The notes below the pieces were generated by a model. The model was not told the DNA's origin and did no database searches. It saw only the letters and a list, made by a program, of their open reading frames with translations. A program made the translations under genes and the position numbers. DNA of 63,658 nucleotides, the filler included, from Platydemus manokwari (Eukaryota): the NCBI GenBank assembly GCA_037951405.1. It is 5 parts of 5 records of this genome, joined end to end, with 100 filler letters (N's around TTAATTAATTAA, not from the genome) between each part and the next. Parts side by side here need not be neighbours in the genome. Positions count along the whole stretch, not along the records: positions 10,537 to 29,422 come from JBBMOY010188894.1; 4 more parts are not named here. The stretch is one strand, 5' to 3'. Below, in pieces: positions 10,437-59,658 of the stretch (the first letter of the stretch is position 1; each line of letters starts with the position of its first letter).

Positions 10437-10536
10437 NNNNNNNNNNNNNNNNNNNNNNNNNNNNNNNNNNNNNNNNNNNNTTAATTAATTAANNNNNNNN
10501 NNNNNNNNNNNNNNNNNNNNNNNNNNNNNNNNNNNN
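10437..10536. other. Scaffold linker N44-TTAATTAATTAA-N44
   Basis: Exactly 100 nt; the 12-mer at 10481-10492 puts a stop in all six frames. Confidence 0.97.
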
Positions 10537-10609
10537 TGTTTAAATGATTTGGTAAAACAAAAACTTTAAACAACTAAAAAACATGAATAACTTTTGACTC
10601 AGCCTAATA
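10537..10609 (-). mobile_element. Terminal segment of a young Tc1/mariner-like element
   Basis: Reverse complement starts TA-TTAGGCTGAGTCAAAAGTT, a mariner-type TIR at a TA. 74 nt are identical to 29523-29596. Confidence 0.65.
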
Positions 10610-13420
10610 TATGTTAAAAATATGTTATTCTACAAATGAATACAATAACATCAGATTCAGATTAAACATTGAAATTAGAAAGAGATGTAATTAATGAAGA
10701 TCAATTATTAGAATCAAAGATATTACTCAGAAAATAGATTATGATTTATTAAAGATTAAAGGCAGTGGTTGGAATATATTTGAATTAGGATAAATGTGTT
10801 ATCCGGAAATAATTATATACCTTTACCCTCTAACAGTTTTGTAAATGTAAAAAATTACGATACCAAATATTTCTCGTATTCAATACTAGCTCATTTAAAT
10901 CCAGTTGATGGAAAAGAACGCCCAAATAGACACGTTCATTATCCAGAACATTTTAACAAAATAAATATAGATGGAATAACATTTCCAGTGCCCATTAATG
11001 AAATTAAAAAATTTGAAAAGAACAATTATTTTAAAATAAATGTTTACGGTATTAGGGGAAACCGAAACCTACGTAAATATTATAGATTATTCTTAATCTA
11101 TATTTAAAAAAACAATATATTCAAGATATTAAACTTTGTATTTTAAAAAGATTGGTATATCTCATTATGCACTGATTAAAAGTTTCGGTCGATTAATGAG
11201 CGGAGAATTAAATTATAATCTAAAATAAAATGAAAAACTGAATATTTGCGATAAATGTTGTTCATATTTTGTAAAAGAAAGTAGTTTCATCAATCATCAA
11301 TAAGTATAAGGTAAAGATGGTAGGAATATAACAAGTGTAGTTGTGCCAAGTCAACAAAATAATATTTTTAAATTTAAAAACTATAACCATCACATTCCAA
11401 TTCCATTTATAATAGTAGCTGATAGAGAGTGTGCTAATATAGAAACCAATAAATTAAAAGGCAAAGCAGCAAGGGTTTTATGTAATCAAATACCTTCTTG
11501 TATTTCTCTAAAGTTAATTTTTAGATATCCAGATCTAATAGATAACAAATTATTTCAAGGAGAAAATTGTATAAAAGAATTCGTTCAATGGATAATAGAT
11601 AATGAAAGTAGATTTGAATTTAAATCAATGACAAAATTTGGAATTAATATTACCGGGGAACATGAAAATAATTTTAATATTTCAACGGATTGCATGCATT
11701 GTAAAAAGTAATTCATTGAATAAACAATAAAAGTTAGAGATCATGATCATCATCTCAAACAAAACAACTACAGAGGAGCTGCATGTGATAAATATAATTT
11801 ATTATCAAGGAAATCAAAAGATTTTTCCATTACATTTTATCTATTGATCAAAATATGATTTTCATTTGATAAAAAAGAATTTACAAAGAAATCTGAGAAA
11901 AATCTAAAAATACTACCATTAACAGAAGAAATTTCCATTTCCTTTAATTATGGGTGTATTAGATTTAAAGATTTACTAATGTTGTTTGTAAACTCTTTAA
12001 ATAAGATAATTAAATCTATTAAAACAGTGGAATTTATAGAATTAAAATAAGAATTCGGAGAAGATTTAGATTTAGGTTTAATGAAACAAAAAAGAATCTA
12101 TCCATATGGCTATATAACTTCATTGGAAATATTAAATAAAACTAAATTACCTCCAATAGAACGATTTTATTCTAAATTAAATTTAAGTGGAATAACATAA
12201 GAAAAATTTCAAAGAGCACAAACAATTTGGAATAAATTCAATAGTAAAACATTATGGCATTACACAATCATATATTTAAAGCAAGACGTAGATATCCTAG
12301 CAGGTGCTATTGAATCATTTTGAACTAATTATATATATGTATCAAAGAAATTTAGATCCAATCCACAATGTTTCTTCCCCATCTTTAACTTGGGAATCAG
12401 GATTAAAAGAAACCAATATAAACTTGGAATTATTTACAGATAAAACAATGTACGAGATGATTGAAGAAGGAATAAGAGGAGAAATATCATCAGTAATGGG
12501 TAAAAGATACTTTAAAGGTATTAATAAATATATTAATGATAATATAGATTGTTATTATTATCTTGAAGAACATGAAATTAACAGAATAATAGAAGACTTC
12601 AACAAATATGAAAAGGGCACTAATAAGATACGAATTGAATTTTTTGATTTAAGTAAATATTTTGACAAGAATTATTTAATGTATATTGATGCCAATGATT
12701 CATATGGATGAGCAATGAGCCAATCATTATCTTATGAAAATTTTAAATGACTTGTTTTAAAGGGTTAAATAAAACAAATAATAATTTAGAAGAATTTACT
12801 TCAATATTAAATCAATTACCACCTGATTCCTGAACAAGGATTAATTTTAGAAGTTGATCTTGAATATATAAACGAAAGTAAAAAAAACTAACAATGGATT
12901 TTTCTGTAGCTCCAGAAAAAAAAGGAAGTAAATTTTGAAATGTAAAGTGAGAATCAAAAATAACAAATAAAAAAAATCATTTATCAGAATTATTAATTTG
13001 TGACGAAACAGATAAAAGAAATTATGTTATCTATTATAGAAATCTTCGGTTTTATTTAAAAATGGGCATGAAAATAAAACGAATAAACCAAATATTATTG
13101 TTTAAATAAAAACCATATTCAATCAAATACAAATCTAAGAACCAAAGGAACAAGTTATTTTGAAAAGGATATCTGGAAATTAATGAATAAAAACAATTTT
13201 GGAAAAACAATGGAAAAATATTCGAAAATGAGAAAATATAAAATTATTGATTGATCCCATTAAATCTAAAAACAAAATACAAAACCAACTAATAAAAGAT
13301 TTACTAAATTTAGTGAGGAATTATTTGGAATATATATTATCAAAAGGAACAAGTAAAATTAAATAAGCCAATTTATTTACGATTTTACATTTTAGAATTA
13401 AGCAAAATATTAATATATTT
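10610..13420 (+). pseudogene. Protein-primed family B DNA polymerase (pPolB), frameshifted and truncated before motif C
   Basis: Motifs in order: KGSGW, NYIPLP, YSILAHLNP, FPVPINEIKKFEKNN, IIVADREC (Exo I), CMHC..VRDHDH..YRGAAC, KYDFHLI, YPYGY, LPPIERFYSKLN, LDPIH..SPSLTW, IRGEIS, YIDANDSYG*AMSQ (motif A), KLMN..FGKTME (motif B), KLNKPIY..ILELSK. No YxDTDS seen. Confidence 0.92.
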
Positions 13421-13670
13421 CTTTCTCAAAATTCTCTTTGATTTCGTTAACACATTTTTCGAGATATTTCTTATTTACAGCATCTGTTTCATGTTTTGGA
13501 TCACCCAAGTTTGTCATTCTATAATTGTTTAATTCTAAATAACCTCTCATACAATCACCTTCCTCATTAATATATTTTCTATCATAAATTCGTTCTTAAA
13601 CACTAATCATTTCTCGAACATCTCTCATATTATTTATTGAACTATTATCAAATTTATGAACTATAGACAT
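13410..13670 (-). pseudogene. Fibre/adhesin-neck-like viral ORF with one internal stop
   Basis: MSIVHKFDNSSINNMRDVREMISV*ERIYDRKYINEEGDCMRGYLELNNYRMTNLGDPKHETDAVNKKYLEKCVNEIKENFEK; matches the GDxMxGxLxxxxxRITNLxxPxxxxDAVNKKY pattern. Confidence 0.65.
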
Positions 13671-14104
13671 TTTTAAATTTACAATTTAAAATCTGCTTTT
13701 CGATTTCATTCCACAGATGATCAATAATATAATCAAATTTTAATCCATTATCTAAACAATATTAAGCATACAAAGATGATTGTCCACATAATTTTCCTTC
13801 TGTTTGTATTTTAATTTTATTCTAAACAAAATCAGAATCTTCACCTTCAAAGAAATTATAAACTTCTCTAGTTGGTAAAATTCCATGAGGATAAAATTTA
13901 ATTTTATGAGGTTTACTTATTGAAACCCAATGAGAACCCTTTTCTTTTGTAGTTTCTAAATTCATTATTATATATTTTTTATCAGTAAAATTCTTCTCTC
14001 ATAATAATTTCAATATCTAAATTTAAATTATCAGAAATATCCATTAAATCTAAATTAGTAGATTTATTAATTCCATACTTAACTAGAAAATTTAATAAAT
14101 CCAT
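13654..14104 (-). pseudogene. Adenain-like cysteine protease (virion maturation protease)
   Basis: STNLDL..IMREE(frameshift)..YIIMNLETTKEKGSHWVS..KFYPHGILP..*NKIKIQTEGKLCGQ. Catalytic His, oxyanion Gln and Cys are present; the usual FDS Asp is altered. One frameshift and two stops. Confidence 0.85.
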
Positions 14105-14131
14105 TTGTTGAAAAATAAAAATTTAATTTGA

Positions 14132-15335
14132 TTAAACTTGTTTACGATGAAGTCTCAAAGATATTTCTTCTTTATTAAAATCTATTAAATCTCCATTTTG
14201 ATCTGTTATTTCAAAGGTAATTTCACCAATCTTAAACCATCTAACTCGTTTGTAACTTTCAGGCACAATGAAGTTGCGGAGATTGTAGCAAAGTGTGTGG
14301 AATATCAGACCGATTATAGAATCTTTATAGATAAGAAATGTCAATCTGCCAACTCCAACCTTCTAGTGGACTTACAAATGGTGAATAACAGAAAATCTAC
14401 CATCATGTTAATTGACATCAAATGCCCCATGGCAAATCAAAAAAACCTCACCAAGTACGACAGTCTCAAAAAAGAGGTCAAAAAGAACAAGCCAAAATTC
14501 ACGGTCAAATTTCACACTTTGATCGTGGGCGTGCTCAGAACATGGGTGAAGTCAAATGATGGAATTCTGCGAAAATTGGGGCTTAAACAGCAAGTCATCT
14601 GCAAACTAGCGATGATATGCATAAAGTCAAATATCAATGCATCGTACCTCCAATGGCAGTTCCACACTGGCAAAATAAACTCATACTGCCCCTAATTAAC
14701 GAAAACAAGTGGGGAATACTATTCACAGTTGGACCTTGACTCTGAGGACTGTAGATGAGCAATCAATTACTGGAAGTAGCCAAGAGAAATGTGATAATAG
14801 GTTCAATTGAAAGAAAGAATCTATGTTATAAGTCGTAAGTTATCACGGCTTACCAATCAATCATTGTCTTAAATAGATATTTGTTTTTTTGGTTTTTGTT
14901 TTTTTTTGTTTTTTTTATTAAATATTGGAAAATAGATTACTTGATTTACTTCTTTAATATATAAATAACTTGGGGAACACTATTAGCTGGAAAACTATAA
15001 ATAATATTTGTGCTATTTCCAGCTACATATCTTCCATCAACTATTCAACATTCAGCATTTATTCGCATAAGCTCAGAAATTTTTATTTTATTTTCTGATA
15101 AATGATTTCCAGTAGTGTATAAATTATTATTATCAAATCCTAAAGCAAAACCTTGAGTAAGTTATTAATGGGATAATAAATTATTACAAAGTGTTTTTAA
15201 TAAATATGATAATAAAATTCATTTAATTATTGGTGTTAGCCCCATTTTCAAAATTGAAATCGGAGGAATATTAGAAAAGATGTTTAAACTTAAAGTTTCA
15301 AAAATTAGAAATATTTTATTTTTAACGTTTGTCAT
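14132..15335 (-). pseudogene. Penton/minor capsid protein gene split by a retrotransposon insertion
   Basis: N-part (15335-14914): ALGFD..GNHLSENKIKI..INAEC*IVDGRYVAGNSTNIIYSFP..VIYFPIFNK. C-part (14233-14132): KIGEITFEITDQNGDLIDFNKEEISLRLHRKQV*. Removing 14234-14913 rejoins PIFNKKIGEI. Confidence 0.8.
14234..14913 (+). mobile_element. 5'-truncated non-LTR retrotransposon with restriction-like endonuclease (NeSL/R5-like)
   Basis: ORF to 14695: (ILNH)..RHNEV..VDL..LIDIKCP..KY..IVGVLRTW..NDGILRKLG. About 185 nt of 3' UTR, then a T-rich tail at 14881-14913. GC is higher than the flanking viral DNA. Confidence 0.85.
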
Positions 15336-15458
15336 TTATTATTAATGTAACTTGTTATTTTCTATCTTCATTAACTTTACTTATGCCACTTTTATTTAAT
15401 AGCTTACTACTTGCTACTTATTGAGCCCTTTGAAATTTAACAAATTTAATAATATCAT

Positions 15459-15641
15459 TTATATATTATCAGGTAAAGTTATTTCATTGCTATTGATTGA
15501 CCCCCCCCCTTCATTACTTTTGGCAGAGGAACTTTCATTAATTTGTTCTATATGTTTTTTAGATTTTTCATGAGCTTTTAAAGCTTGAATGGTCTTGAAC
15601 GTCGAGTCGCAAATTTGGCATTTATGCTCATTCATTTTCAA
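15459..15641 (-). pseudogene. Small C2H2 zinc-finger ORF, first gene of the viral minus-strand cassette
   Basis: HKCQICDSTFKTIQALKAHEKSKKH = CxxC-x12-H-x5-H. Confidence 0.7.
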
Positions 15642-15755
15642 GATTTATTTTTTGATAGGTTTTTGTTTTTCTGGTTTTTGTAATTTTTGTAATTTTCTGG
15701 TTTTCTAGTCTTTGTAATTTGTAAAAAATATGTTTTATTCAATAAAATGTCATAG

Positions 15756-15864
15756 AGTAGTAATATAGACCAATTATTAGACAGTGTAAATCTCCAATAC
15801 GAATGAGCGAAAGCGAAAGAGGATTTGAGGGTTATGCTGCTTAGAACTGGTCTATATTACTACT
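15756..15864. repeat. Palindromic Polinton-type terminus (AGTAGT...ACTACT)
   Basis: AGTAGTAATATAGACCA (15756-15772) is the perfect reverse complement of TGGTCTATATTACTACT (15848-15864); imperfect symmetry continues inward. Confidence 0.85.
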
Positions 15865-18025
15865 GATCTTCTCCAGTATATAAAAATCAATGTAGCGGAA
15901 AACAGTGTCCTCAATAATATGTTATTGTAGCAGTGTTAATTGTGACTGCCGCCTTATATAGGCAACTACGAATCACTCGCAGATATTCTATGGTATAAAA
16001 TTTAATGCCAGTGTATTTAATAATATCTTGCTGGAAATTATTTATCAGAGAGAGAAATATATTTTATTCAGTGATTGTATTTAATGTACCCGATAATAGG
16101 CGACAATTTATTTGTCGATATTATTGCGCGATAATATATTACGTGTTAATATTTTATAAATAAATTTATAATTTAGGGAATTTAATGCAGGATTTTCAGG
16201 CATTATTATTTCAGATATTTACAGATAATAATTATTATAAATACTAATATATTATATTATTCTAAGCTTATTTCACTCAAATAATCTGGGAGTTGTTAAG
16301 ATATAAAAATACACAATGATGAAGATTAATACAATAAAAATTAATGCACATCCCATAGCCATTGTCATGCCTAAAAAGATGATTATTATAAATATTGCTA
16401 TACAACATTGTACATAGTTTTGTGTGAATTATTTGGTCAATACCCCAACATTATGACTAATTTTCTAGCCACTATAAAAGCGGAAGACCAACCGATAGGA
16501 ACACACATTTACACAAAATAAGCACAGTTAAAATACAGAAAGTTTTACACAGAAAGTTGCAATAACTCTTGCAAATCTCCACAACAGTCCGAATGAGCAG
16601 TTCATCAAGTTACTGACCTGGCTAAATTGTCGAAACCACCATCCAGAATCGGGGGTCAATCAAGAAGGTGAGCCTTAAAATATATGCTAATTGCGTTAAG
16701 GATTGAAGTTCTAGGTAAGCGATTGGTTTTAATATAAATTTATTTCGTAATTAAATCGATTATTAAAAAAAATATTTGAGATCAATATCAAATCCTCAAA
16801 AGTTGTTTACCGATATGGATTGATTCAGTTTAAAATCTTTTATTAAATATTGGAATTATCTTTCATTTCAAATGACGTTTGGCAGAATAATGAAAAATAC
16901 TGCGGTTGTATTTCGATTATTAAAATTGATTTATTTATTTTCATCTAATATTGATTTCGGAGTTATTGTTTTAATAATATATCACAACTAATTAAGCAAT
17001 TTAGCAACAAGTTTGCACTGATTTCGGAATTAATATAAATTTGCTTAATTCAAATTCACAGAGATGTTTGGTAATGTTTTATTGATTTTTTGGTATTAAT
17101 TAACCCTGTTTGGTTTTGACATCAGATGATGATTCTGATCGAAATGTTAGTGTTTTTAATTGTTCGATATTTAATGTCTCATTGTCTTTATTGAAAATAT
17201 TAACACTATAATGTACTAATTCGATTTTTACGTGGTTTACTATTGATTTTTAACAATATTCGATATTATTAAGTGATTTTATCATACATCGATTTTATTG
17301 TCATAAACTGAACAATTATCGTTGTTAATGTTATTCAATAATCAATCATGTTCGGAATCGACTGAAATAAAGTATCTTAGGAGTTTCCTATAAAATTTTG
17401 ACCTTATATCTTGGTGTTTCCCATCGTTTATGTTATCTCATTATTTCCGGATGTTAAATTTATAGCTTTAGTTTTCTCGATTCCATGATTGTCTATGCTA
17501 GATTTAATTGGCAAAAAGCACGGAAGTGTTTCTTTCCCAAATATCCTCATATAAAAGGCACGAATTCACAATAATGAGTCTGATAAGCCATACCCTGATG
17601 TTACAAAACGTGAAATTAGTTGAGGGAATTCATTATTACACAACAGTTATACAAAATCAATTGTCGGATCTTTTAATTTATAATTTATGATTGATTTTAT
17701 TGATTGAAATTGAATTATTAAAATTGGATTTTAACGCTTTCAAAGTTTAATAATTTACTGAATAAACCTTTAATAATCAGGGGAGATATTTTACTAATAG
17801 GCGGATTTTGTCATGATTTTAAGCCATTACCGTATGACAACACTTTAATTGCTAAATTCAAAACCGAAATCCTAAAGTTCATCATTTGACTTGCTGAATT
17901 TGTATTTGGTTTGATCAGTAATTCTATCAGAGATATCACAGAAAGTTTATTTGATTTCAGTTGAGATGATATTGATTTTTTTGTAGTAACATTTGAAATA
18001 TTTGTGTTCTTATATTTCAGATATT

Positions 18026-18607
18026 GGCTAAACTTAAAAAATGGTCCTAAAATGAAATTTTAAATTTGTTGAGTGCGTTGCAGAAATCTATATAGTTTAT
18101 TTAATTACATTCTTTAAAAACATTTTCAATTTTTTATTTAAGTGCTTAAGAAGAATTTTAGTTGTTTGACATCAAATATTAAATACATTGGAGCTTAAAA
18201 ATCTCGTAAAATTTGATTTTTGGAAAAAATGAAAAAAGTAGGTCGGATTGCAATTTATTGAAAATTAGCGAGGACCCCTGTTTTAACATTAGAAGCGAAT
18301 TGAGATCTAAAAATAACCAATGATATTATTAAACATGGCTGTAATTAACTAACTCGATTTATAATTATAAAAATATAAATTTAAAAACTCAAATAATCAC
18401 TTAGAAGTGTTGTGATGAGAATCGGAACTTGGTTTAAAAACCATGTTTTGTCACTATTAGACATCTTAACAAATGAGATATTAACTGAATTATACGAATA
18501 AATCAAACAAAGCAGTAATATATAAAATTAAATTATAAAATTATCTCGCGCGCGAAAATTCATTACAACGAAAGTGAGTCAAAGGACCCTTTTTCTGAAC
18601 TTAAGCC
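18026..18607 (+). mobile_element. 582-bp MITE with GG..CC termini and 8-bp TSD (Merlin-like)
   Basis: Imperfect ~25-bp TIRs (GGCTAAACTTAAAAAATGGTCCT / AGGACCCTTTTTCTGAACTTAAGCC); CAGATATT duplicated at 18018-18025 and 18608-18615. Confidence 0.75.
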
Positions 18608-19406
18608 CAGATATTGTTTTTTGATCTAATATTGGAAATATATCTATTCTTATATCTTCACAGAGTGACGAAGAAGATAAAATCGAAAAATTGAAAAATG
18701 AAATTCGGAGTAACTAACTGGTGTTAATGCTTTATCGATTGAATTAATATTTAAACATTAGGTTTAAAAAGAAAACATAATAAAGAAACGGGAGTTCTAA
18801 ATAATTCATTGGAGGAAAAAGAGGACATAATTAAAGGTAATTTTTGTTAGTCACGATGAGATTTTTCTGTCATATTTCGGGCTGCTTTTATCGAGTATTA
18901 TTGGCATCTTTTATAAAAGAGAAGATTTTTGATTTGATATTGATGATATTGATTCATTATATGAGTTTTGTGAGCCGCTACAATTTTATAAAGCGCGCAA
19001 ATATTTAATCAATAAACAGATATTTTAATGACACAACTCAGACATAGTGACAGACCTTCATCACAATGTGATGGGGTGAATATCACAGGGTTCGCATTGG
19101 TTCTTCTTCTCATTATCATTTGTCAAACAAGTTTGTCGAACATCTCCTCATCCTCAGAGTATGTCGACTTATCGTCCGAGATATTTTCGTGATTGTATTT
19201 TTCTGTTATGCTTATTGGTCTATAGAACGCACTGAGCGTACGACCGAAAAGCCACGACATCGAATTATGTATTCAAATAAAATACAATTATTTAAACAAA
19301 TTATTATAATTTTATAATTATAAAAATTTTTAAAAAATTTATTCATTGAAAAATCCTCACATTTCCTTTCTTTAAAAATCTTTGATTTTATTTTCATTCT
19401 GAATTG

Positions 19407-19756
19407 TATCAAATGCCCTACATATTCATCTATATCAAATGCCCTACATATTCATCTATATCAAATGCCCTACATATTCATCTTTATCAAATGCCCTACA
19501 TATTTATCTATATCGAATGCTTTACATATTTATCTATATCGAATGCCCTACATATTTATCTATATCGAATGCTCTACATATTTATCTATATCGAATGCCC
19601 TACACATTCATCTATATCGAATTCTCTACATATTCATATATATCGAATGCCCTACATATTCATATATATCGAATGCCCTACACATTCATCTATATCGAAT
19701 TCTCTACATATTTATCTATATCGAATGCCCTACACATTCATCTATATCGAATTCTC
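19407..19756. repeat. 26-bp minisatellite, ~13 copies
   Basis: Unit tatatcgaatgccctacatattcatc with variants, contiguous and without spacers. Confidence 0.95.
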
Positions 19757-20402
19757 TAATTGTTCTATCTTCTTTATATATCCTCAGTATCTGTCTGCGC
19801 CTCTTCCATAATTTTCACTTATTGATTATCTTAGAATCCTATCCATGCTTGTGGTCGCCATGTAAACCGTTACTATATTATAAAGCACCAATTGAAAATG
19901 AACTCTAAAGCCAGGACACCAAATACAAGAACAAATATAATCTTATAAAATTAGAGTTAAATAATTACAAAATCAATTCATTGAAAAATCCTCACATCTC
20001 CCATTTCATATTCATTTCACTTTCAAATGAGTTCCTTTATGTGTTCTTTTTGATAGTGTATTTGGAAATGTTCATATTTTAATCGATAACATTGGAAAGG
20101 ATCGCTATTGGTGTTGAAAATGGGGGAATTCAAGGCTAATTGATGCCGTTAATTTGAAGATTGGATTGAAAATGAAGGGCCTGGCGAAATAATAGACCTA
20201 TGAAAATATAATATCGATTAAATATGATTTTAATCAATAATATGTTATTGATGATTTCAATTTTTAGATTTAAATTCGAAAATCTTTAGATTGAAACGTA
20301 TGGGTAGTCGAGATCCAACAAATGAATGGAGTTTGATTTGATAAATATTTTAAATGAATTTTTATATTTTGTATTGTGCAGATGATGAAGAAATTGAAGA
20401 AA

Positions 20403-20570
20403 NNNNNNNNNNNNNNNNNNNNNNNNNNNNNNNNNNNNNNNNNNNNNNNNNNNNNNNNNNNNNNNNNNNNNNNNNNNNNNNNNNNNNNNNNNNNNNNNNN
20501 NNNNNNNNNNNNNNNNNNNNNNNNNNNNNNNNNNNNNNNNNNNNNNNNNNNNNNNNNNNNNNNNNNNNNN
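20403..20570. other. Assembly gap (168 N)
   Basis: N run. Confidence 0.99.
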
Positions 20571-21620
20571 GATATGAAATCAAAATTTAGTTACGATCAG
20601 TGCACAAATCTGAAATATTTAGCGATTCTTCATTTGAATGAAATAGCTATGAGCTTGACTCTATAAGTTAGCGATTTATGAAAAATAGATTTTTTAGCTT
20701 ATTCGATACCGATGAAAGAAAATGGGGAAGCTCTAAATCTCAGCAGCTCTCTTAACCTATTAATTATTATCATTAATTTTATAATTAATAAGCAATAACT
20801 AAATAATAATTATAATAAGTAAATTTATTATTTTAATTATAAATTAATATTAAGAGGATAGGTAAAATTATTTGAAGTCGAATTTAAAATAAAATATATT
20901 TTCTATTTCTAAAATAAGCTGTTTGTTTTAAATTTGTTTTTCACATAATTTCATAATGATGATTTTTCGCGCATCAAGTAATTTTATAATTCAATGTCAC
21001 GTGCATTATTTTTATATTAATTTTGTATCAAAATTGTATCAGTTGATTTTAAAACTGCTGGTTTAAGAAAGCTGGTGAAGCAATTCGAATGGCTAACAGT
21101 GCCATGTTGATAACCAAAGTTCGGAAGACATCTGAAAGACAGCCACTAAAACTTACCAGTGATTGACTCGGGCTCCCAATCACCAATTAAATAAAAAATT
21201 ATATTTTATATGTTTATTTTATATTTATATTGTAATTTTTGCATTTAGGATTGTCACACGAAGGCTTCGGAATAAAGAGAAATAATTTTATCAACAAATT
21301 TATCTTTTAATAGATTTTATAAATATTAATTTTCATTTTTTATGACATTCCTTTTTACCATTTCATCATGTTTCATTGATTCAGGAGTTCAGTTGGCAGC
21401 CCATTTTTCAGAATGTTGAATATCAATAAAACAGAACTTTTCAACCAGCTTCATGTTTAGATCTTAACACTTCTATGTGACTTTTTGTTTCGTTTTTTTA
21501 ATATTGAATTTCAAACAACCAATATTCTTCTTAGATAATTAAATAAAAAATTCAAAATATTTTTAAGTAATATAATTAACTATATCAATTTTTACAATAA
21601 ACTCAACAAATTGAAAATTT

Positions 21621-22201
21621 GACTAAAGTTAAATAAAAGATCCTAAAATGAAATTTTAAATTTGTTGAGTGTATTGCAAAAATCTATGTAGTTTATTTAA
21701 TGAAATTCTTTAAAAACATTTTGAATTTTTTATTTAATTACTTAAGAAGAATTTTAAATACACTAGAGCTTCAAAACTTCCTAAAATTTGATTATTTGAA
21801 AAATGGAAAAAGTCGAATGCAATTTATTGAAAATTAGCGAGATCACATTTGTTAACATTAGAAGCAAATTCAGAAAGATTATCAATTTTTACAATTATTT
21901 TAAAAATAACTAATGATATTATTAAACATGTCTGTAATTAACTATATCGATTTATAATTATAAAAATTTAAATTTCAAAACTCAAATAATCATATAGAAG
22001 TTTTGTGATTAGAAATGGGAACTTGGTTTTAAAACTATGTTTTGTCACTATTAGACATCTTCAAAAATGAGATATTAACTGAATTATATGAATAAATCAA
22101 ACATAGTAGTTATATATAAAATTAAGTTATAAAATTATCTCATGCGCGAAAATTCATTTTAACGAAAGTAGGTCAAAGGAGTCTTTTTCTTAACTTAAGC
22201 C
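21621..22201 (+). mobile_element. Second copy of the ~580-bp MITE
   Basis: Colinear with 18026-18607 over its whole length; TSD degraded; an extra terminal fragment follows at ~22216-22242. Confidence 0.8.
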
Positions 22202-23639
22202 AAAAGATTTATTTAAGGAACCTTTTTTTATTAACTTTAGCCGCAAATCTTAGGCTAACATTTATTGTTGCCATTAATAATATTATTATTTATTATTATT
22301 ACTCTTAATAAATCGTTATCAAATAAAAAGTATTTTCAAATTTTCATTGTCTCATCATTTGGAAAGCAATTGGAAGGAAATTAAGTCGTAAATGAAATCA
22401 TATTTTGTCTAAGCATATCTATAAATATTAACATCGAACTTCATGAAGAGTTTAATCAATTCAACATTCAAAAATAAATTTTTTGCAATGACATTTCATG
22501 AAGAAATGAGAAAAATATTGAGCAAATAATGTTTGCAAATAAATCTAATAAACACTTGTAATTTTTTCATGTTTAGAAATGGATTATTTTCGATTTCAGG
22601 CCTCATAAATCATCAGATGTGAAAACATATGAAGAGATGATATTGTTCATCAAATTGGTATACAATTACAACCAATTGGGATTTAATATCAACTCGTATT
22701 TTCATTATTATTCATTACAAATATTTGTGATTGAATAAAATATATTTATTCATTTTATCTAATTAGAGTCTATATTTTCATGACTACGTCATTGATGTTA
22801 ACAATTAAATCATTTTTCACAAGGAATAACCAATTATTTTAGTTTCATTGGCTATAATTGGATCAAATTATCAATTAAAACATGAAAATAACAGATAAAA
22901 TTTGATTGGTTGATTTTCATATGTTGTGATCTTTCTCGTCATGACGTAATTGTATTAGCATATCGAAAATATTGCTTGTCATTATCAATTATAAGGAGTA
23001 TTTATAAAAATCAATAAATCCGACCACTGATCAGTTGAGTTATGGAAATACCGAGCTATGAACGAATTGAAATGGCTCCAAATAAACATCAATATGTTTT
23101 ATCTTATTATTTTCAAATTTTATTAACTTGTGCAATTTCATACAAGATTACTCTGTGCTTGATTCCACTTAACAAATATATTTTTATAATTTATCACGAT
23201 CACATATAACACAAGATTGAATTTAGACCATCAAAGTGTAAATTTGTTGTAACATTAAAATAATTATAATAATAATAATAATTAATCTAGCCGTTTATAA
23301 TAATAATAATTTCCTGATTTCGCTTTTTGACAAAGTCGGTTTCGAAACTGCTTATCGATAATAATAATATCGATAAATCTTAATCATATTATTTCTACTA
23401 GTTGTACACGAAATTTTCGCTGCACTTTTATCAGCTATACTGGATCAAGCTTATGTACTATTTTTTGCTTAGCATTAAAATTTCTTCTTCAGTTTCCACA
23501 TATTCTGAAAATCCACAGTTGAAAAATAAAGATATTATTTCGTGTTTTAATTAATTTATTTCCTTTCTTTTTTCAGGAATTCAGACTATTAAGGTCAGTT
23601 TCTTTAATTGAAAATCCCTACCGATATATATTCTATATT

Positions 23640-24140
23640 GCATTCATAAATTCTCAACATATATTTGGTGCACTTCAAAGCAGCGTCTTAATTTAGAAGT
23701 CCAAGCTCGTTTAGCATTTTGAAGGGTAATTTGTGATATATCGTTCAAAGCTCTTCCAAAATTCGCTGTAAAATCATCAATAAACTTTATGTCACGTCGA
23801 CAATTCTGAATCTCTGTTAATAACAAGCTCCAAATGCAGTAATCTATGACATTTAAGTCTGGACTTTTGTAAAGATTATTCTTTGTAAAAAAATAGCAGT
23901 TTTTACACAGAAATTTTCCACTTTTCTAGCGACCACCTTGTATGTGAGGAATCAATTACAAATGGTTCACTTTATATTTTTTTTACCTTTTCATAAAATA
24001 ACATTTTGATTTAGCTTTTTTAAAATAAAATATTCCCTCATAAAATTGCAATAATTTAAAAATTTTGATTTCGATATTATCAGTGAAATTTATTAAACTG
24101 TTCTGAACATCCAGATGAAGTTATGAGACCTGCTGTACAT
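23640..24140 (-). mobile_element. Tc1/mariner-superfamily transposase C-terminal remnant
   Basis: SPDLNVIDYCIWSLL...ISQITLQNAKRAWTSKLRRCFE on the minus strand. Confidence 0.65.
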
Positions 24141-24999
24141 GCATACTGTTCCAATTAATATTGGAATTTATTACATTGAGAACATTTATAGATAGAATTA
24201 ATATAAATACATGCAACACAATTGGTGATCTCTATCTCTTTCAAGGTGAAATATTTTTAGTGAATTGTAGAGATCATAATGTTTTATCCAAATCTATCTG
24301 ACAATCAATAGATTAATAAAGTAATTAAATGAGTTGTGTTTCGCCTTTCATGGTCAGCCCGTAGATGAAAATGATAAATTTGTAAATTCTATGATAGCTG
24401 TAAAATGGCGGAGAGTTAATTATTATGTTTTATCAAAATATATGTAAATCTATGAATTAAAAAATCATTTTTGTCTGAAATTGAATATTTGATTACAACA
24501 TTCAATTGTTGAAATCGCTAGAACACTGGGAATTTCTTTGAAGATAAACACACAGACAGCTAAAGAAATTGTCAATGTTTTGATTTTATATTTAGAAAAT
24601 TATTTTTATTAAGTAAAATTATTTTTAAAAAGATTATTAATAAATTATTAAAATGTATTTGGAGTTTATTATTATAATTATTACTAAGCAACAATGCTTA
24701 ACTCCGGATACCGTTTATTCGCAAGACACAGAATATTATAGAATTTTAATTCTAAATAATAATGGTTGTTTGCAGCTACTATTTTACAAATCACACATTA
24801 AAACTGAACTGAAAAGTCACAACATCAGATTCCGTATTTAAATAAAATGATATAAACAAATTTATATAATTTTATACAAAATTAGATCTTTAAAAATTTG
24901 ATTCAATTTAAAATTCTCAAAATGGTAAAAATAATAATAATAATATTTTTAATTAAAATAATCTAATAATTTTACGAAAAATAAGTAAAAGTAAACGTG

Positions 25000-26300
25000 A
25001 TTGATATGCGAGTGTAGAACTTAAAAGCAAATTCAAAGTGATACTCAAGTCCAAAGTGGTAAGATGATAATGAATGTTATTGTATTGTAATACAGATACA
25101 AGTGTAATACAAATTTTCTGCATACAAATGGTTTGATATTCGGTTTCCTGTTGGAATAGCCCATAATTCAATGACGAACAAATATATATCTATAAAACCA
25201 TCGAAGAATTGAAACCCAAAAGCAATTTTCTGATTTTAAATAGGCAAAGTGTGAATTATTAAGGATTAATATAGTGTTGAGACGTAATAATAAATGTGAA
25301 CGACCAGGAAATACTTGAGTTAATAGCTTCTGATGCCCATAAAATAACGTATTCAGAAAAATATCGATGTAAAATACGATAAGAGGTTTGAGAAATAAAC
25401 CATAAAATAAGAATTATGAGAAATATTCTGTCATTTGGGGATAGTCACAATAAAAATAAACAGAAAAAAGAACATCACGAAAATGAGTTCTTAATTCAAT
25501 TATAATAGTAGCGGAAACAGTATATTAAAAACCCACTTATAGAGCTCGAACTAAAGTTCTCTGAGATAAATAAAAAATACCAAAAAAACATCTTATTCTT
25601 GAAGTGGTGACGTGTTTTGAAAATGAAAGTATACTCTAAGGATAATCAATTTGAATCAAAAACCAAAAAGCACTCCCTCCTGAACTGCGATGAAGAACCT
25701 TTAACTACTGGAACAATCAGGAATTATATGCGAAATAACCAAAGAGGTATGTAATTATAACGCAATATTATTAGATACCATACTGCTAAATGTGAAATGA
25801 AAGTGGATATTGGTGTACGAATTTAAAAAAAACATCCGAATTTCATCGAGAACACGTGTGGCATTTAGGAAGAAATTTAGTAACTGCCAGTAAATAGAAA
25901 CCCAACTAAATATTTATATATTGATCGAAAAATATAAAGAATGAATAGAGATAATGTTTAAAATGTGAGATAGTTTTCAGAAGTATTGGAGATAAATCTG
26001 TCTGTGTTACTCTCACATATCATTAACTCAAATATTTAACATGAGAACTGACGTATAACAAATATAACTTTCAATTGTAAACTCTTGAATCGATATTTTG
26101 TTTTACTAACGTATATTGACTTTTTTTGATAAAATTTAAACAAAAAATTAGAACTTGATTGGATTATAGAAACTAAAATGAGAGAAAGGAATATCATTCC
26201 AATAAATAAAAGAAGAAAAACAATTGATTGTAAAGATTATTTGAGATCGATCCCATTCTTTTACATAAATCATCATCCATATTGTCGTTATCGTGCCCCG
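25000..26300 (+). mobile_element. Possible degenerate LTR retrotransposon integrase region
   Basis: FCHLGIV (~25425-25447) resembles the integrase HHCC region; remainder highly decayed. Confidence 0.3.
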
Positions 26301-27167
26301 TATTTATAAATCTTCTTCATTCGATTTGATGCATTCAACGAAACGATTGACTGAGATCCACTGGCAGATGATTTATATGGGAATTAATAAATTGAAATTT
26401 CTCTCTTTGATGTCTGCTTGATTAAATTTCTTTTTTATAAAATGGGTAAATTTTATCACCAATTTAATATTTTAAAAGTATATCAAATAGTTTAATTTGT
26501 TTTAATGCATCTGAATATACTACTTATAAAACAAATGATGAGTGGCTTTTATCGGTATAGGACGTTTTTAATTATTAAATCAAACTCATTTTTGTTTAGG
26601 TTTTTTCAATGATTTTTTAATATTTTTTAATTTGTTTTATTCTGTCAACATTATACTACTTACTAAATTACTGTAAAAAGCAAAACGACAAATATAGAAA
26701 TTTTTAAAAATTTTAAATTCAAGTCGATAGAAATCTTGACATTTATTTATTCAAATATTTTTCGCTCGACATAGCTCGTAGAATAGAAATACTCCAACCA
26801 TTAAATTTGGTTCTTGAATGATAAACAGAAAATAATAATTACAAAAATAATTTTTTCCAGTAAATATTAGAAAGAAATTTTTTTCCCCAACTTTTTATAG
26901 ATCAAGTGCAAAAACGTACTAAGAAATTTGACAAGGGATTCTGTGAATTAGAATGACAAACAACATATTGCATTGAAAATGTTAAATGGATTATAAATCA
27001 TTGCATATTATTAAATGAAAAAGAAGAAATTGACTTCATATTCATTAAGACTGCTTGATATACCTTGAAATATCGTGAAAAATATGTTATGATAAGTACA
27101 ACGATAAATCAATGTTTTATTAATGAGTAATGTTTGCGTTGAAGGATTTTCTTTATATGTATATGTA

Positions 27168-27898
27168 TAGTATTGGAACGAAAGTCTTTTCCGACAGAAG
27201 ATAATATTAATTTAACCAATAAAGACAATACGTAAATTGAGAAATATAAATAAAACATTAATCGTCTGTAAATTTAAAAGATTTCAATGTTTTATGAAGA
27301 AATATTTAGTTTAAATGCATTATGAAACCATTTTTATTGTTTAATTTCTATCTTCTAATTAAATATTGTTTTAAATGGCTATTTTATAATAATAATATTA
27401 TTTAGTGATATATTAAGGAGTTTAAGCCAAGTGACTAGCAAAAGCTGACGTAATTTCGTGGAAAGATGGAATGAATGCGCCAGCAATTTAGAAGATGATT
27501 AACTCTGTGCTTGACACCGGTACCGTGTCTGCGAGAAACTGCCAGCGAATAATTGAGAAATTAATTGTTTTACGGTAATACCGCATCAACCATACTTTCC
27601 AAATCTCACCCCTTCAGATAATTACCTATTTTTTCATATGAAAAATGCATTACTCCACTGAGGAGGTTAAAGATGATTTGAAAAAGTGGTTTGCTTGAAA
27701 ACCTGCGGAATTCTATGAAAACGGCATAAAACAACTTCCAGAATGCTAGCAAAAATATGTGGACCTTAACGTTGACTATTGTCAACATTTCAGATTTACA
27801 GACGAATGATGTTTTGTTAATATTTCTCAATTTACATATTGTCTTTATTGGTTAAATAAATATAATTTTCTCAGGACAAAACTTTCGTTCCGATCCTA
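27168..27898 (+). mobile_element. Internally deleted mariner with long (~120 bp) imperfect TIRs, TA-flanked
   Basis: PHQPYFPNLTPSDNYLF (cf. PHPPYSPDLAPSDY) and KPAEFYENGIKQLPEC*QKYVD; inverted repeats at 27168-~27290 and ~27775-27898. Confidence 0.85.
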
Positions 27899-29248
27899 TA
27901 TATACATACATATATATATATATATATTGTTTATCTTCATAAAACATTCATAAAAGTAACTTTTCCAACAACAGACAGTACTTATAATCAAATTCCATGA
28001 TATTGAATTTGCTAAATATAGCACTGTTGGTATTTTTCTTGTAGGATGAACGAAATATTCGTGGAAAATATTTAATGCCTAAAATAGCGCGATTCGTGAT
28101 TGACGTAGAGAGATTTAATTCCAATGTGCAATTCGATTGAAAGCTAAGATGTAGTCCTTCTCTATGATATTGGCAGAATGAATATATCAGATTAATATAT
28201 ATAATCTGCAATTACTGAATAATATCCGGTAATCCGACAATTCTTATTTAACGTTTATGCCTATGATGAAATTTCCAGCATCGATTTAGAGTTTGATCGA
28301 TTGCATTTAGAGTTTTAGGCAGCTGCTGCAGACAATTCTGATATTACCTATTATTTGTTTGAAAGCTACCGTTGTAAATAGATGAAATGGTTTTTCATTG
28401 TATTTTATTTGTAAGAAATAAAATGATTTAAATTTATTATTATGATAAATATAATATCATAATTACATCATAATTATGGCAATGGGAATTTGCAATCACA
28501 AAGTATAATAAAATGTTTGAATATTTAATATAGAAACCGTTTTGATAATTATTATAAACTATATGTCGGCATCATGCTGTGAATAAACTTGAAATTGGAA
28601 ACTCCAAGCGATAATACAATTGGTTTGTGAATTTTATCTGCAAGATATTCACAATTACTATTAGTGTGTGAAGGAATTTGATTTGTACTTTGCTATATTA
28701 AATGACATTTAAATCCAACAAAATACATTATTCCCTGATGTCCGTATAAAATCTTATAACTGACATGTCTTTGAAGACTTATAAATTTGTTATTAAATTT
28801 TTATCAAGTCTTCCCTTTAATGTTTCAATTAAATTTTAACGCTTATAAACGATTTGATATGTGCGTCAAAAAAAATATTAACTTAAATTATTATTATTAA
28901 ATTACAATGTATTATTTGTAATTTTTATTTAATTATTTTAAAAATGAAGTTTTGTTATTTCATTTAAAGATGCCATAAGATTTAAATACAAAAGAATATG
29001 TTTTTAATTCACAAATATTGAAAAAATAACTTAACATATTGACGGACAGTAGGAACAAATGAAGTTCAAATTATAAACGCAAGTATCCGTCAACGTGTTA
29101 AAAATCATTTCTTTAACGAATATTCATTATAGTTTAAACACAGTACTCGTGCATAATATTCTCAGAACGCTTTAAGTATTATCATAGTAATATTAAATTT
29201 GATAAATTTAAAATTTAAGAAAATTTAATGTAAATCTAAATATTTTTT

Positions 29249-29422
29249 GGCTAAAATTAAGAAAAAGGGTCCTTTGACCAACTTTCGTTATAATCAATTT
29301 TCTCATATGAGATAATTTTATAACTTAATTTATATGTAACTACTGTGTTTGATTTATTCGCATAGTTTAGTTAATATCTCATTTTTTTAGGATGTCTAAT
29401 AATTCCCATTCTATTCAAAAGA
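29249..29422 (-). mobile_element. Third, inverted partial copy of the GG..CC MITE running into a gap
   Basis: ggctaaaattaagaaaaagggtcctttgacc... is the reverse complement of the 3' end of 18026-18607. Confidence 0.75.
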
Positions 29423-57500: not shown

Positions 57501-59658
57501 ACAGTCAAATTCTCAAAACAGCTTACAATAATGATCATGACTAAGCTAGCACGCATAACAATAAATATAAAGTCGAGTTTTCTGAACTTATATGAAAAAT
57601 AAATTCCATAAAACTACTAGTTGGATGACTTGAATGAATTTGCTAGATATATACATCAATCTGGCTTTTAAATTATAAAACGGGTTAAATCAATAGATCG
57701 AATTTTTAGTAATTTTCGCATTCCAGTATTTATATTAATTTTTTGTTTAGATAGTTTTATCGAATCTGATATTAATTTCTCGTTATAATAAAAATCTATT
57801 ATTCCAGTTAGTAGAAATACATCAGCATTTGATGTATCTGGAATGGCAATTAGACTGGTTTGAGGAGCAGGTATTAAATCGGTGTTGTTGATATCGCTAT
57901 AAACGTTGTGTCGATATTATTGATGTTATTCTTATTTGTATATAATTTCCTCTCCAAACATCATTAAATAAAATAATTTTATTCTTAAGGCATCGAAGGA
58001 TCACATAAAATCACCAAAGTCAAACAAAAGTCCTATTTTCATCAAAGATCAATTAACCACAATCTCTTCCAGAAATCCTAGTACTGCAAAAGATTACTCC
58101 TCACCAAATTCAATCAAGAATCAAGGTAGACCTAAAGATTACCCATCACCTAATTCACCAAAGGATCAGATCATTACTCGAGATTACGTTTCACCGAGTT
58201 CCACAATGAATAAACATAGCAAAAATTATCCATCGACAAGATCCACAAAGACGGATGACTTCAGAAATAATCCATCATCAGATTCCGTGAAAGACCAATG
58301 GAACACTCAGGATTACTCACCTCAGAATTCATCGAAGAATCAGAGTTACACAAGAAATTACCCATCGCATAATATACCGAAAGATCAACGTGATATCCAA
58401 GACTACAATTCATCAAGTACGTCAAAGAACCAGGGTTATCTATCATCACCAGATTCCATGAAAGACCAAGGAAATTTTAGAGATTACCCATCTCCAAATT
58501 CATCAAAAAACCAAAGCCATACTAGAGATTATACACCCCAACATTCGATGAGAGAACAAAGAAATATTAGAGATTATCCATCATCAAATTCTTCATTGAA
58601 TAGAAGTTATATGAAAGATCATCCCACGCAGAGAGAACAAAGTAACGAAAGAGAAAGAGGTTACACATCACCGAATTCCATGAATAATCCAGATAACGTT
58701 GGGGATTATCCGTCTTCAAATTGGTCAAAGAATCAAAGTTACACATCAAATCCGATTTCTAGATCAGGTTCTTATAAACGAATGACACTACCTGATACAG
58801 TCATTGGAAGAGAAATTCCAGATGAGATGTGAGTTTAATGAATATGCTTTAATGTTCCAGATCAGGGGGTTCTAACAAGTTCCGCAGTTAAAGCCATTTG
58901 AGCTCAACTCTTTTTCATTTTTGCATCTTCAGTGGTTTTTCGACACAATAAAATCATTTACGTTATTGATTCAATAAAGCATTTTCATTTGCTTGTGTTA
59001 TATCCAATATACAAATGATATTGCCTTACATTTTCCAACGTATTTAGCAGTATTATGCACATGAAATTTTAAGAAAAATATGATTAACAAGTTAATGTGA
59101 GAAAATCTGTGTTTATAGAAGGCTCTATAGCCACAAAAATGTTGAAAAACACTGTTAAAGATAGTAAGATGGTGGTTATTAATATCATATTATTACTTCA
59201 TTTATTATACTATATATGTAGAGAGAGACAGATTTAAAAGTTGAGCTATCTTTTATCATTTTATTAGGAAGAGGAAGGAGACACAGAACACTACCAGCTT
59301 ACCGAGACAAAGTTATTCATATAGCACCGAGGTAAATTGATAATCTTATTATGACTATTACTATTACTACTACTATTATTATATAAATAATTATATTAAA
59401 TTCAGCATTTAAACTCTATTGAAAACGCCAAAAGATCTAGCCGTGAAGAAGCAATGAAAACTTCTAGATATTCATTAAGCAATTCTAATTCCAATATATC
59501 AAGATTGAAGCAATTATTTGAACAGCCTGAATTTCCTAAAGTTCAACGGGTTTGTTTCCAATATTTTGTTTTAGTTTAATACTATCCATAAATTTCTATA
59601 CACTTGACAACATTGACATTATAATAGTAAAATAATGACAGCAATAATTACAAAAAAC

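Follow-up and report, generated by a model that had tools for sequence, protein, structure and literature searches.

A GA-apex fold-back hairpin at the right end of a decayed Polinton from Platydemus manokwari

The right end of a decayed Polinton in the genome of Platydemus manokwari is a 109-nt hairpin that begins with AGTAGT, ends with ACTACT and is closed by a strand-specific GA apex. On balance, we favor the explanation that this hairpin is a built-in tip of the Polinton family, the 3' end of which would fold back, thereby capping a single-stranded intermediate and starting second-strand synthesis. The window, that is, the whole stretch of DNA analyzed, is 63,658 nt in length and was taken from assembly GCA_037951405.1. 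The part harboring the hairpin, positions 10,537-29,422, derives from JBBMOY010188894.1. The window is AT-rich (mostly 21-36% GC), is apparently eukaryotic, and contains no ORF longer than 208 aa. An ORF of that length at 58053-58832 carries 45-nt repeats and has no Pfam match. Additional repeats include a tandem array with a 26-nt unit (19329-19836), a duplicated segment (18036-18620 and 21632-22214, 86-90% identical and separated by about 3.6 kb), and an inverted repeat with 23-bp arms (21536-21740).

As described in the initial annotation, the hairpin displays a perfect 17-bp inverted repeat, AGTAGTAATATAGACCA, at positions 15756-15772 (+) and 15848-15864 (-), from which an imperfect symmetry continues inward. 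The only other match to the 17-mer in the window has three mismatches, which is at chance level. The hairpin arms are the sole case in the window of a perfect inverted repeat of at least 17 bp within a 150-nt span, and none of 60 tile shuffles produced such a repeat. The right-end ACTACT is positioned at 15859-15864. It had been suggested from the outset that a single end might fold back, and indeed the 109-mer, taken as single-stranded DNA, is predicted to fold with an energy of -20.1 kcal/mol (z -6.05), a value equaled in 0 of 200 shuffles. The complementary strand folds at -15.8. Both the arms and the fold are far beyond chance. In the pair table, the Watson-Crick pairs number 38 and are accompanied by two tandem GA/GA steps and the GAAA loop; 21 positions, including one bulge, are unpaired or wobble.

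The minus strand carries TC/TC at the apex. The geometry of sheared G.A pairs is well established, and, judged from the sequence, such pairs would be possible only on the plus strand, the 3' end of which is the terminal ACTACT. Note that the folding program does not model sheared pairing. This strand-specific GA apex was missed in the initial annotation, the interpretation of which otherwise stands with respect to the Polinton end, the fold-back, and the copies with an inner stem. A search of Rfam gave nothing at the gathering threshold and only sub-threshold matches to miRNA hairpins. A hammerhead ribozyme at the apex was rejected by eye given that its core is mismatched and stem I is missing. 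Shown in Table 1 are the coordinates of the hairpin segments and of the neighboring features.

Table 1. Segments of the terminal hairpin and features of the adjoining Polinton remnant (window coordinates)
Feature	Position	Strand	Evidence
Broken protein-primed family B polymerase (pPolB), 3' end truncated, start lost near the N gap	10784..13418	+	31 homologs (PF03175 or PF02945 in several); tiled by tblastn, E to 1e-77
Broken protease-like gene, a lead only	13651..13998	-	Atlas leads Peptidase_C48/C5 at 0.88-0.89
C-terminal piece of penton-like gene, set apart by an insertion	14135..14293	-	Viral Atlas clusters
Broken penton/minor-capsid-like gene, middle piece	14923..15161	-	65% identity to P0032
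C2H2 zinc-finger ORF, the first frame encountered inward of the end, 120 nt away from the hairpin	15462..15635	-	Pfam zf-C2H2_jaz, E 3e-8
AT-rich subterminal segment common to other copies	15724..15755	+	Covered by X1 record 7
Inner arm, identical to the terminal 17 bases in inverted orientation	15756..15772	+	AGTAGTAATATAGACCA
Imperfect middle stem, 5' side; its partner is 15821-15847	15773..15800	+	Pair table; 4 of 5 listed X1 hairpin differences at unpaired positions here
Apex GA-NN-GA-GC-GAAA-GC-GA-NN-GA: two tandem GA/GA steps and a G..A loop	15801..15820	+	Sequence
3' side of the middle stem	15821..15847	+	Pair table
Outer arm and right terminus of the element, ends (ACT)2	15848..15864	+	AGTAGTAATATAGACCA inverted copy; X1 record 7 alignment stops at 15864
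Outer flank, host DNA, high-copy repeat from about 15900	15865..16190	.	X1 contig depth very high, many loose ends

The assignment as a Polinton terminus, made initially, agrees with the surroundings of the hairpin: pPolB and other element genes lie inside, and host repeat DNA lies outside. The element combines a pPolB gene, albeit broken and truncated, with the (AGT)2//(ACT)2 end motif, two features of Polintons/Mavericks. For comparison, an alignment of 18 pPolB homologs led to 28 viral and 80 metagenome loci, the latter being the best 80 of 546, and removal of one spurious locus left a set of 107. The penton-like family measures ~250 aa, and a profile built from 12 of 20 phmmer hits located ORFs in 23 of these 107 loci (metagenome part, the best 80 of 546). 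The penton-like gene has no significant Pfam name; PF21507 V18-19 appears on 21% of one Atlas cluster matching the C-terminal piece, and this match, like the assignment of the gene as a viral minor capsid, is a lead. Homolog searches with the N-terminal frame of the penton-like gene and with the protease frame returned nothing, and the outer flank (15865..16190) shows no match to proteins of the related loci.

The penton-like gene is split by an insertion at 14295-14920, which contains an ORF (14378-14695) without a Pfam match that, by eye, we take to resemble the restriction-like endonuclease end of a non-LTR retrotransposon. A short frame on the minus strand at 13413-13595, displaying a NLGDPKHETDAVNK motif, is presumably fiber-repeat-like and sits where pPolB is truncated. 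ORFs of the 107 loci gave no window match to an RVE integrase, a packaging ATPase, or a major capsid protein, which is uninformative because the element is cut by an N gap. No left end preceded by the predicted GATCTT occurs in the window, where the element runs into the gap at about 10437-10537.

Other copies of the family are represented in X1, a run available as contigs only and the single run that contains the hairpin stretch; contig depth in it was not taken as copy number. Record 5 of X1 is identical to positions 15562-16099, which argues against a simple mis-join, though the assembly may itself have been built from X1. The 1175-nt contig of record 7 can be aligned to 15724-15864 without gaps, at 27 differences. 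This alignment covers the hairpin plus 32 bases inside it and breaks off precisely at the terminus, beyond which the flank differs. That the hairpin and the inner flank are kept and the outer flank is not indicates a family terminus rather than a one-off rearrangement or a free MITE. The question of whether other copies possess the inner stem is thus answered in the affirmative by record 7 and by three to five other contigs at each listed inner-stem position.

Of the 248 differences in X1, the 40 shown include five in the hairpin, each found in three to five contigs, and all five fall on the 21 unpaired positions of the 109 (p about 2e-4 if random). Three of them would pair with the partner base of the window copy, one lies at the bulge, and the remaining one stays unpaired unless its partner also differs. 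This confinement to unpaired positions suggests that the family stem may be better paired and that the window copy is probably decayed, a decay that seems to account for much of the "imperfect" symmetry. Just inside the hairpin, differences at 15721 and 15730 are carried by 16 and 21 contigs, respectively. A small palindrome, TTTTATT-C-AATAAAA, is located there as well (15733-15747), in a segment common to many X1 contigs.

The same design is observed in two distantly related pPolB elements, L087 and L052, the hairpins of which are unrelated in sequence to each other and to that of the window. The AGTAGT..ACTACT hairpin of L087 measures 84 nt, has a single GA/GA step and a GCA loop, and is found 23 nt before the contig ends; pPolB and an rve integrase lie upstream of it. 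The L052 hairpin measures 137 nt, has three GA/GA steps together with a GGA loop, and is positioned where a flank of 44% GC meets viral DNA of 22% GC; a small Cys-rich ORF and pPolB lie downstream of it. In all three elements the GA apex resides on the strand with the outward-facing, terminal 3' end, a polarity that by itself carries a p of 0.125-0.25. Across the 107 pPolB loci, with the metagenome part being the best 80 of 546, arms plus apex were found in two versus none in 40 shuffles, by a rule chosen after the cases had been seen; arms alone were not enriched (4 versus a shuffled mean of 2.2), and 101 loci had no recognizable AGTAGT end. A stricter zipper scan did not pick up the decayed apex of the window itself.

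Four other apparent AGTAGT ends, one in L075, for which both TIR ends are present, and three in L026, L038, and L041, the contigs of which begin GTAGTAGT, have no inner arm, and therefore the hairpin is not needed by pPolB elements. In a quick version of the tree, containing 103 of 109 rows, the window, P0001, L099, and L052 group together at an SH-aLRT of 90 (unstarred), with L087 apart. Hairpin versus plain ends showed no clustering in that tree (211 of 500 shuffles as low).

Wider searches were largely negative. In viral_contigs, AGTAGTAATATAGACCA matched six loci, all single-arm chance matches, and in metagenome_contigs the two-arm pattern was absent. General AGTAGT-apex-ACTACT patterns matched 4, 1, 5, and 37 loci in viral_contigs, and in loci from the 37-locus pattern at most 12 of the 16 end bases were complementary. 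Two viral_contigs matches, L121 and L124, fold into long stems, and L124 lies in a phage. Scans of viral_contigs with the L087 pPolB and with the penton alignment gave nothing, and a search covering 3 of 18 records gave one match, probably a coding-region pair at L032 8573 (8/16). Long palindromes of 166-249 nt are also present near pPolB genes (L080:439-626, L057:3-251, and L075:250-415). These were left uncounted, as they do not start with AGTAG, and are either host MITEs or other end structures. At L049:1-440, a cluster of GAGCGCAGCGA zipper repeats extends from the contig start upstream of pPolB and is possibly a subterminal array.

A control was provided by prokaryotic genomes, in which the same pattern gave 99 matches, in 43 of which 13 or more of the 16 end bases are complementary. 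The cases checked adjoin ordinary cellular genes. These matches (L125-L223 in genome_contigs) are intergenic and palindromic, about 75-140 nt long, with GAGCGNAGCGA at the apex and AGTAGT/ACTACT within the arms; they recur in Tannerellaceae, Saprospiraceae, Melainabacteria/Gastranaerophilales, and others, and are REP-dimer-like. The GA-apex hairpin is a generic DNA structure, so common in bacterial intergenic DNA that the motif alone is not diagnostic, and the case therefore rests on terminal position and polarity.

According to the favored explanation, one strand of the element would become single-stranded, either after excision from the chromosome or by pPolB strand displacement, and its 3' end would fold back. 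The terminal ACTACT would pair with the inner AGTAGT, and the GA-stabilized apex would close the hairpin. The folded end would cap the 3' end and furnish a local duplex start for the second strand without a long-range TIR panhandle; the pairing would be local and flush to the last base, with the rest of the strand serving as the template. Self-priming would lead to a hairpin duplex with two facing end motifs at the junction. Alternatively, terminal-protein priming might occur on the protected folded end in the style of Streptomyces telomeres. We infer that the fold-back forms in vivo and serves replication, and, if so, that self-priming from the paired 3'-OH is slightly to be preferred over terminal-protein priming. 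A hybrid route can be put forward only tentatively, whereby scattered pPolB Polintons would employ parvovirus-style sheared-GA 3' self-priming of the second strand, and terminal-protein priming and integrase cuts at the facing AGTAGTs would regenerate the ends.

It seems unlikely that the hairpin, although a family feature, acts instead as a protein-recognition or promoter structure for an integrase, a packaging ATPase, or an RNA polymerase rather than as a start for DNA synthesis. An integrase could use the facing AGTAGT motifs as a pair of sites, and the start of a small zinc-binding ORF lies 120 nt inward of the hairpin in the window and 47 nt inward in L052. GA-loop hairpins do serve as single-stranded DNA promoters in phage N4. 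In L087, however, pPolB and the integrase are both oriented toward the hairpin, which is not the start of any listed ORF of at least 60 aa. In addition, the pairing reaches the very last base, which would be needed by a primer or a cap but not by a promoter.

Less probable still is that the 109-mer is a separately mobile palindrome, either a non-autonomous mini-Polinton or REP-like, that came by chance to lie at the end of the remnant. Such mini-elements exist, as demonstrated by a 165-nt AGTAGT..ACTACT piece at L091:292-456 with a perfect 6-bp TSD (GAGAAA), and similar GA-apex palindromes are dispersed in bacteria, with AGTAGT containing the GTAG tag of REPs (PMC3733652). The L091 piece, however, lacks the GA apex, and no second copy of the 109-mer occurs in the window. 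None of the three hairpins has a TSD. In the window, the flanks tcatag and gatctt do not form one, as had been noted at the start, and without a TSD on either side the conclusion that this is not an independent mini-insertion is upheld. The inner flank, moreover, is shared by record 7 and the outer one is not, whereas a MITE would be expected to have TSDs on both sides and copies with unrelated flanks. Nor does the single window copy, at a viral end, resemble the dispersed intergenic copies of REPs/REPINs, and no Y1 transposase was detected among the 31 flanking proteins tested, of 76, beside the bacterial cases. The L091 piece itself looks like a non-autonomous mini-Polinton; it lies within what by eye is an intron-like stretch, about 720 nt upstream of where the pPolB ORF starts.

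It is very unlikely that the hairpin is a functionless accident, arising either from a snap-back or template switch that copied the terminus in a single lineage or from the assembly itself. In favor of an accident, the element shows heavy decay and rearrangement, and accidental annealing is offered as an alternative origin of terminal palindromes in bioRxiv 10.64898/2026.07.28.741278. Against it, there is exact contig support with several divergent copies, and a snap-back would give a perfect palindrome with an arbitrary apex, whereas three elements unrelated in sequence share tandem GA/GA steps and a G..A loop.

The arrangement can be compared with several known systems. The parvovirus terminal hairpin is an imperfect palindrome of about 100 nt, the 3' end of which can self-prime. 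Likewise, the 3' end here is predicted to fold back into a primer-template. No Rep/NS1 nickase was noticed among the listed ORFs of the remnant, and flip/flop was not observed: the 40 of 248 X1 differences shown contain no apex-wide run, and a mixture is still compatible with them.

Polintons/Mavericks, the TIRs of which end in 5'-(AGT)2//(ACT)2-3', share with the element this end motif and pPolB and, at the level of leads, penton-like and protease-like genes. (AGT)2//(ACT)2 is the commonest end motif reported for vertebrate Mavericks (PMC8097293); "palindrom" and "hairpin" do not occur in the text or supplement of that paper as available. In the standard model, the two distant TIRs of a single-stranded Polinton pair with each other to form a racket, and priming by pPolB, which carries a terminal protein domain (PMC11071308), takes place on a terminal protein (PMC4196379), whereas here the 3' end would pair locally.

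Hairpin priming at terminal palindromes of virophages as well as polinton-like viruses (PLVs) is already known as a proposal, made for the endogenous virophages/PLVs of Halocafeteria seosinensis (bioRxiv 10.64898/2026.07.28.741278). As here, those palindromes are located at the very tip of the integrated element, beside host DNA. According to the available part of that preprint, however, they mostly accompany non-pPolB replication genes and measure 52 nt in subtype 5, whereas the present hairpins are 84-137 nt in length, imperfect, built from AGTAGT, and capped by a strand-specific GA apex in pPolB elements; the preprint supplement may hold pPolB cases.

Streptomyces telomeres likewise belong to a terminal-protein type of replicon whose ends fold into stem-loops, and these have GCA or GGA loops, the sheared pairing of which is said to resist single-strand nucleases (PMC7205883). 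They differ in having several short palindromes and end-patching by Tap/Tpg (PMC7205883), rather than one long hairpin in a pPolB integrating element. Bacterial GTAG-tagged REP dimers resemble the hairpin in their outer GTAG..CTAC tags and one long stem-loop, but they are intergenic, dispersed, and RAYT-linked (PMC3733652), and here the structure is fixed to a viral end in a eukaryote. A GA-apex fold-back at the AGTAGT ends of pPolB Polintons was not found in the full-text literature, a scope that leaves subscription papers, Kapitonov and Jurka 2006, and Repbase outside, nor is it mentioned in the portions available of PMC11296320, bioRxiv 10.64898/2026.10.13.758929, and PMC12747079.

Terminal palindromes are thereby extended from virophages/PLVs, mostly without pPolB, to pPolB elements bearing the classic AGTAGT end. 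How a Polinton restarts replication after leaving the chromosome is, in the literature available, still described by a model, namely the racket (PMC4196379), and a short, strand-specific, and recurring fold-back is a defined substrate that is testable with oligonucleotides and countable across genomes. For annotators, an AGTAGT..ACTACT pair about 100 nt apart can represent one end of a large element and not a mini-element. If the hybrid route were true, it would link adenovirus-type and parvovirus-type replication and would imply convergence with Streptomyces telomeres.
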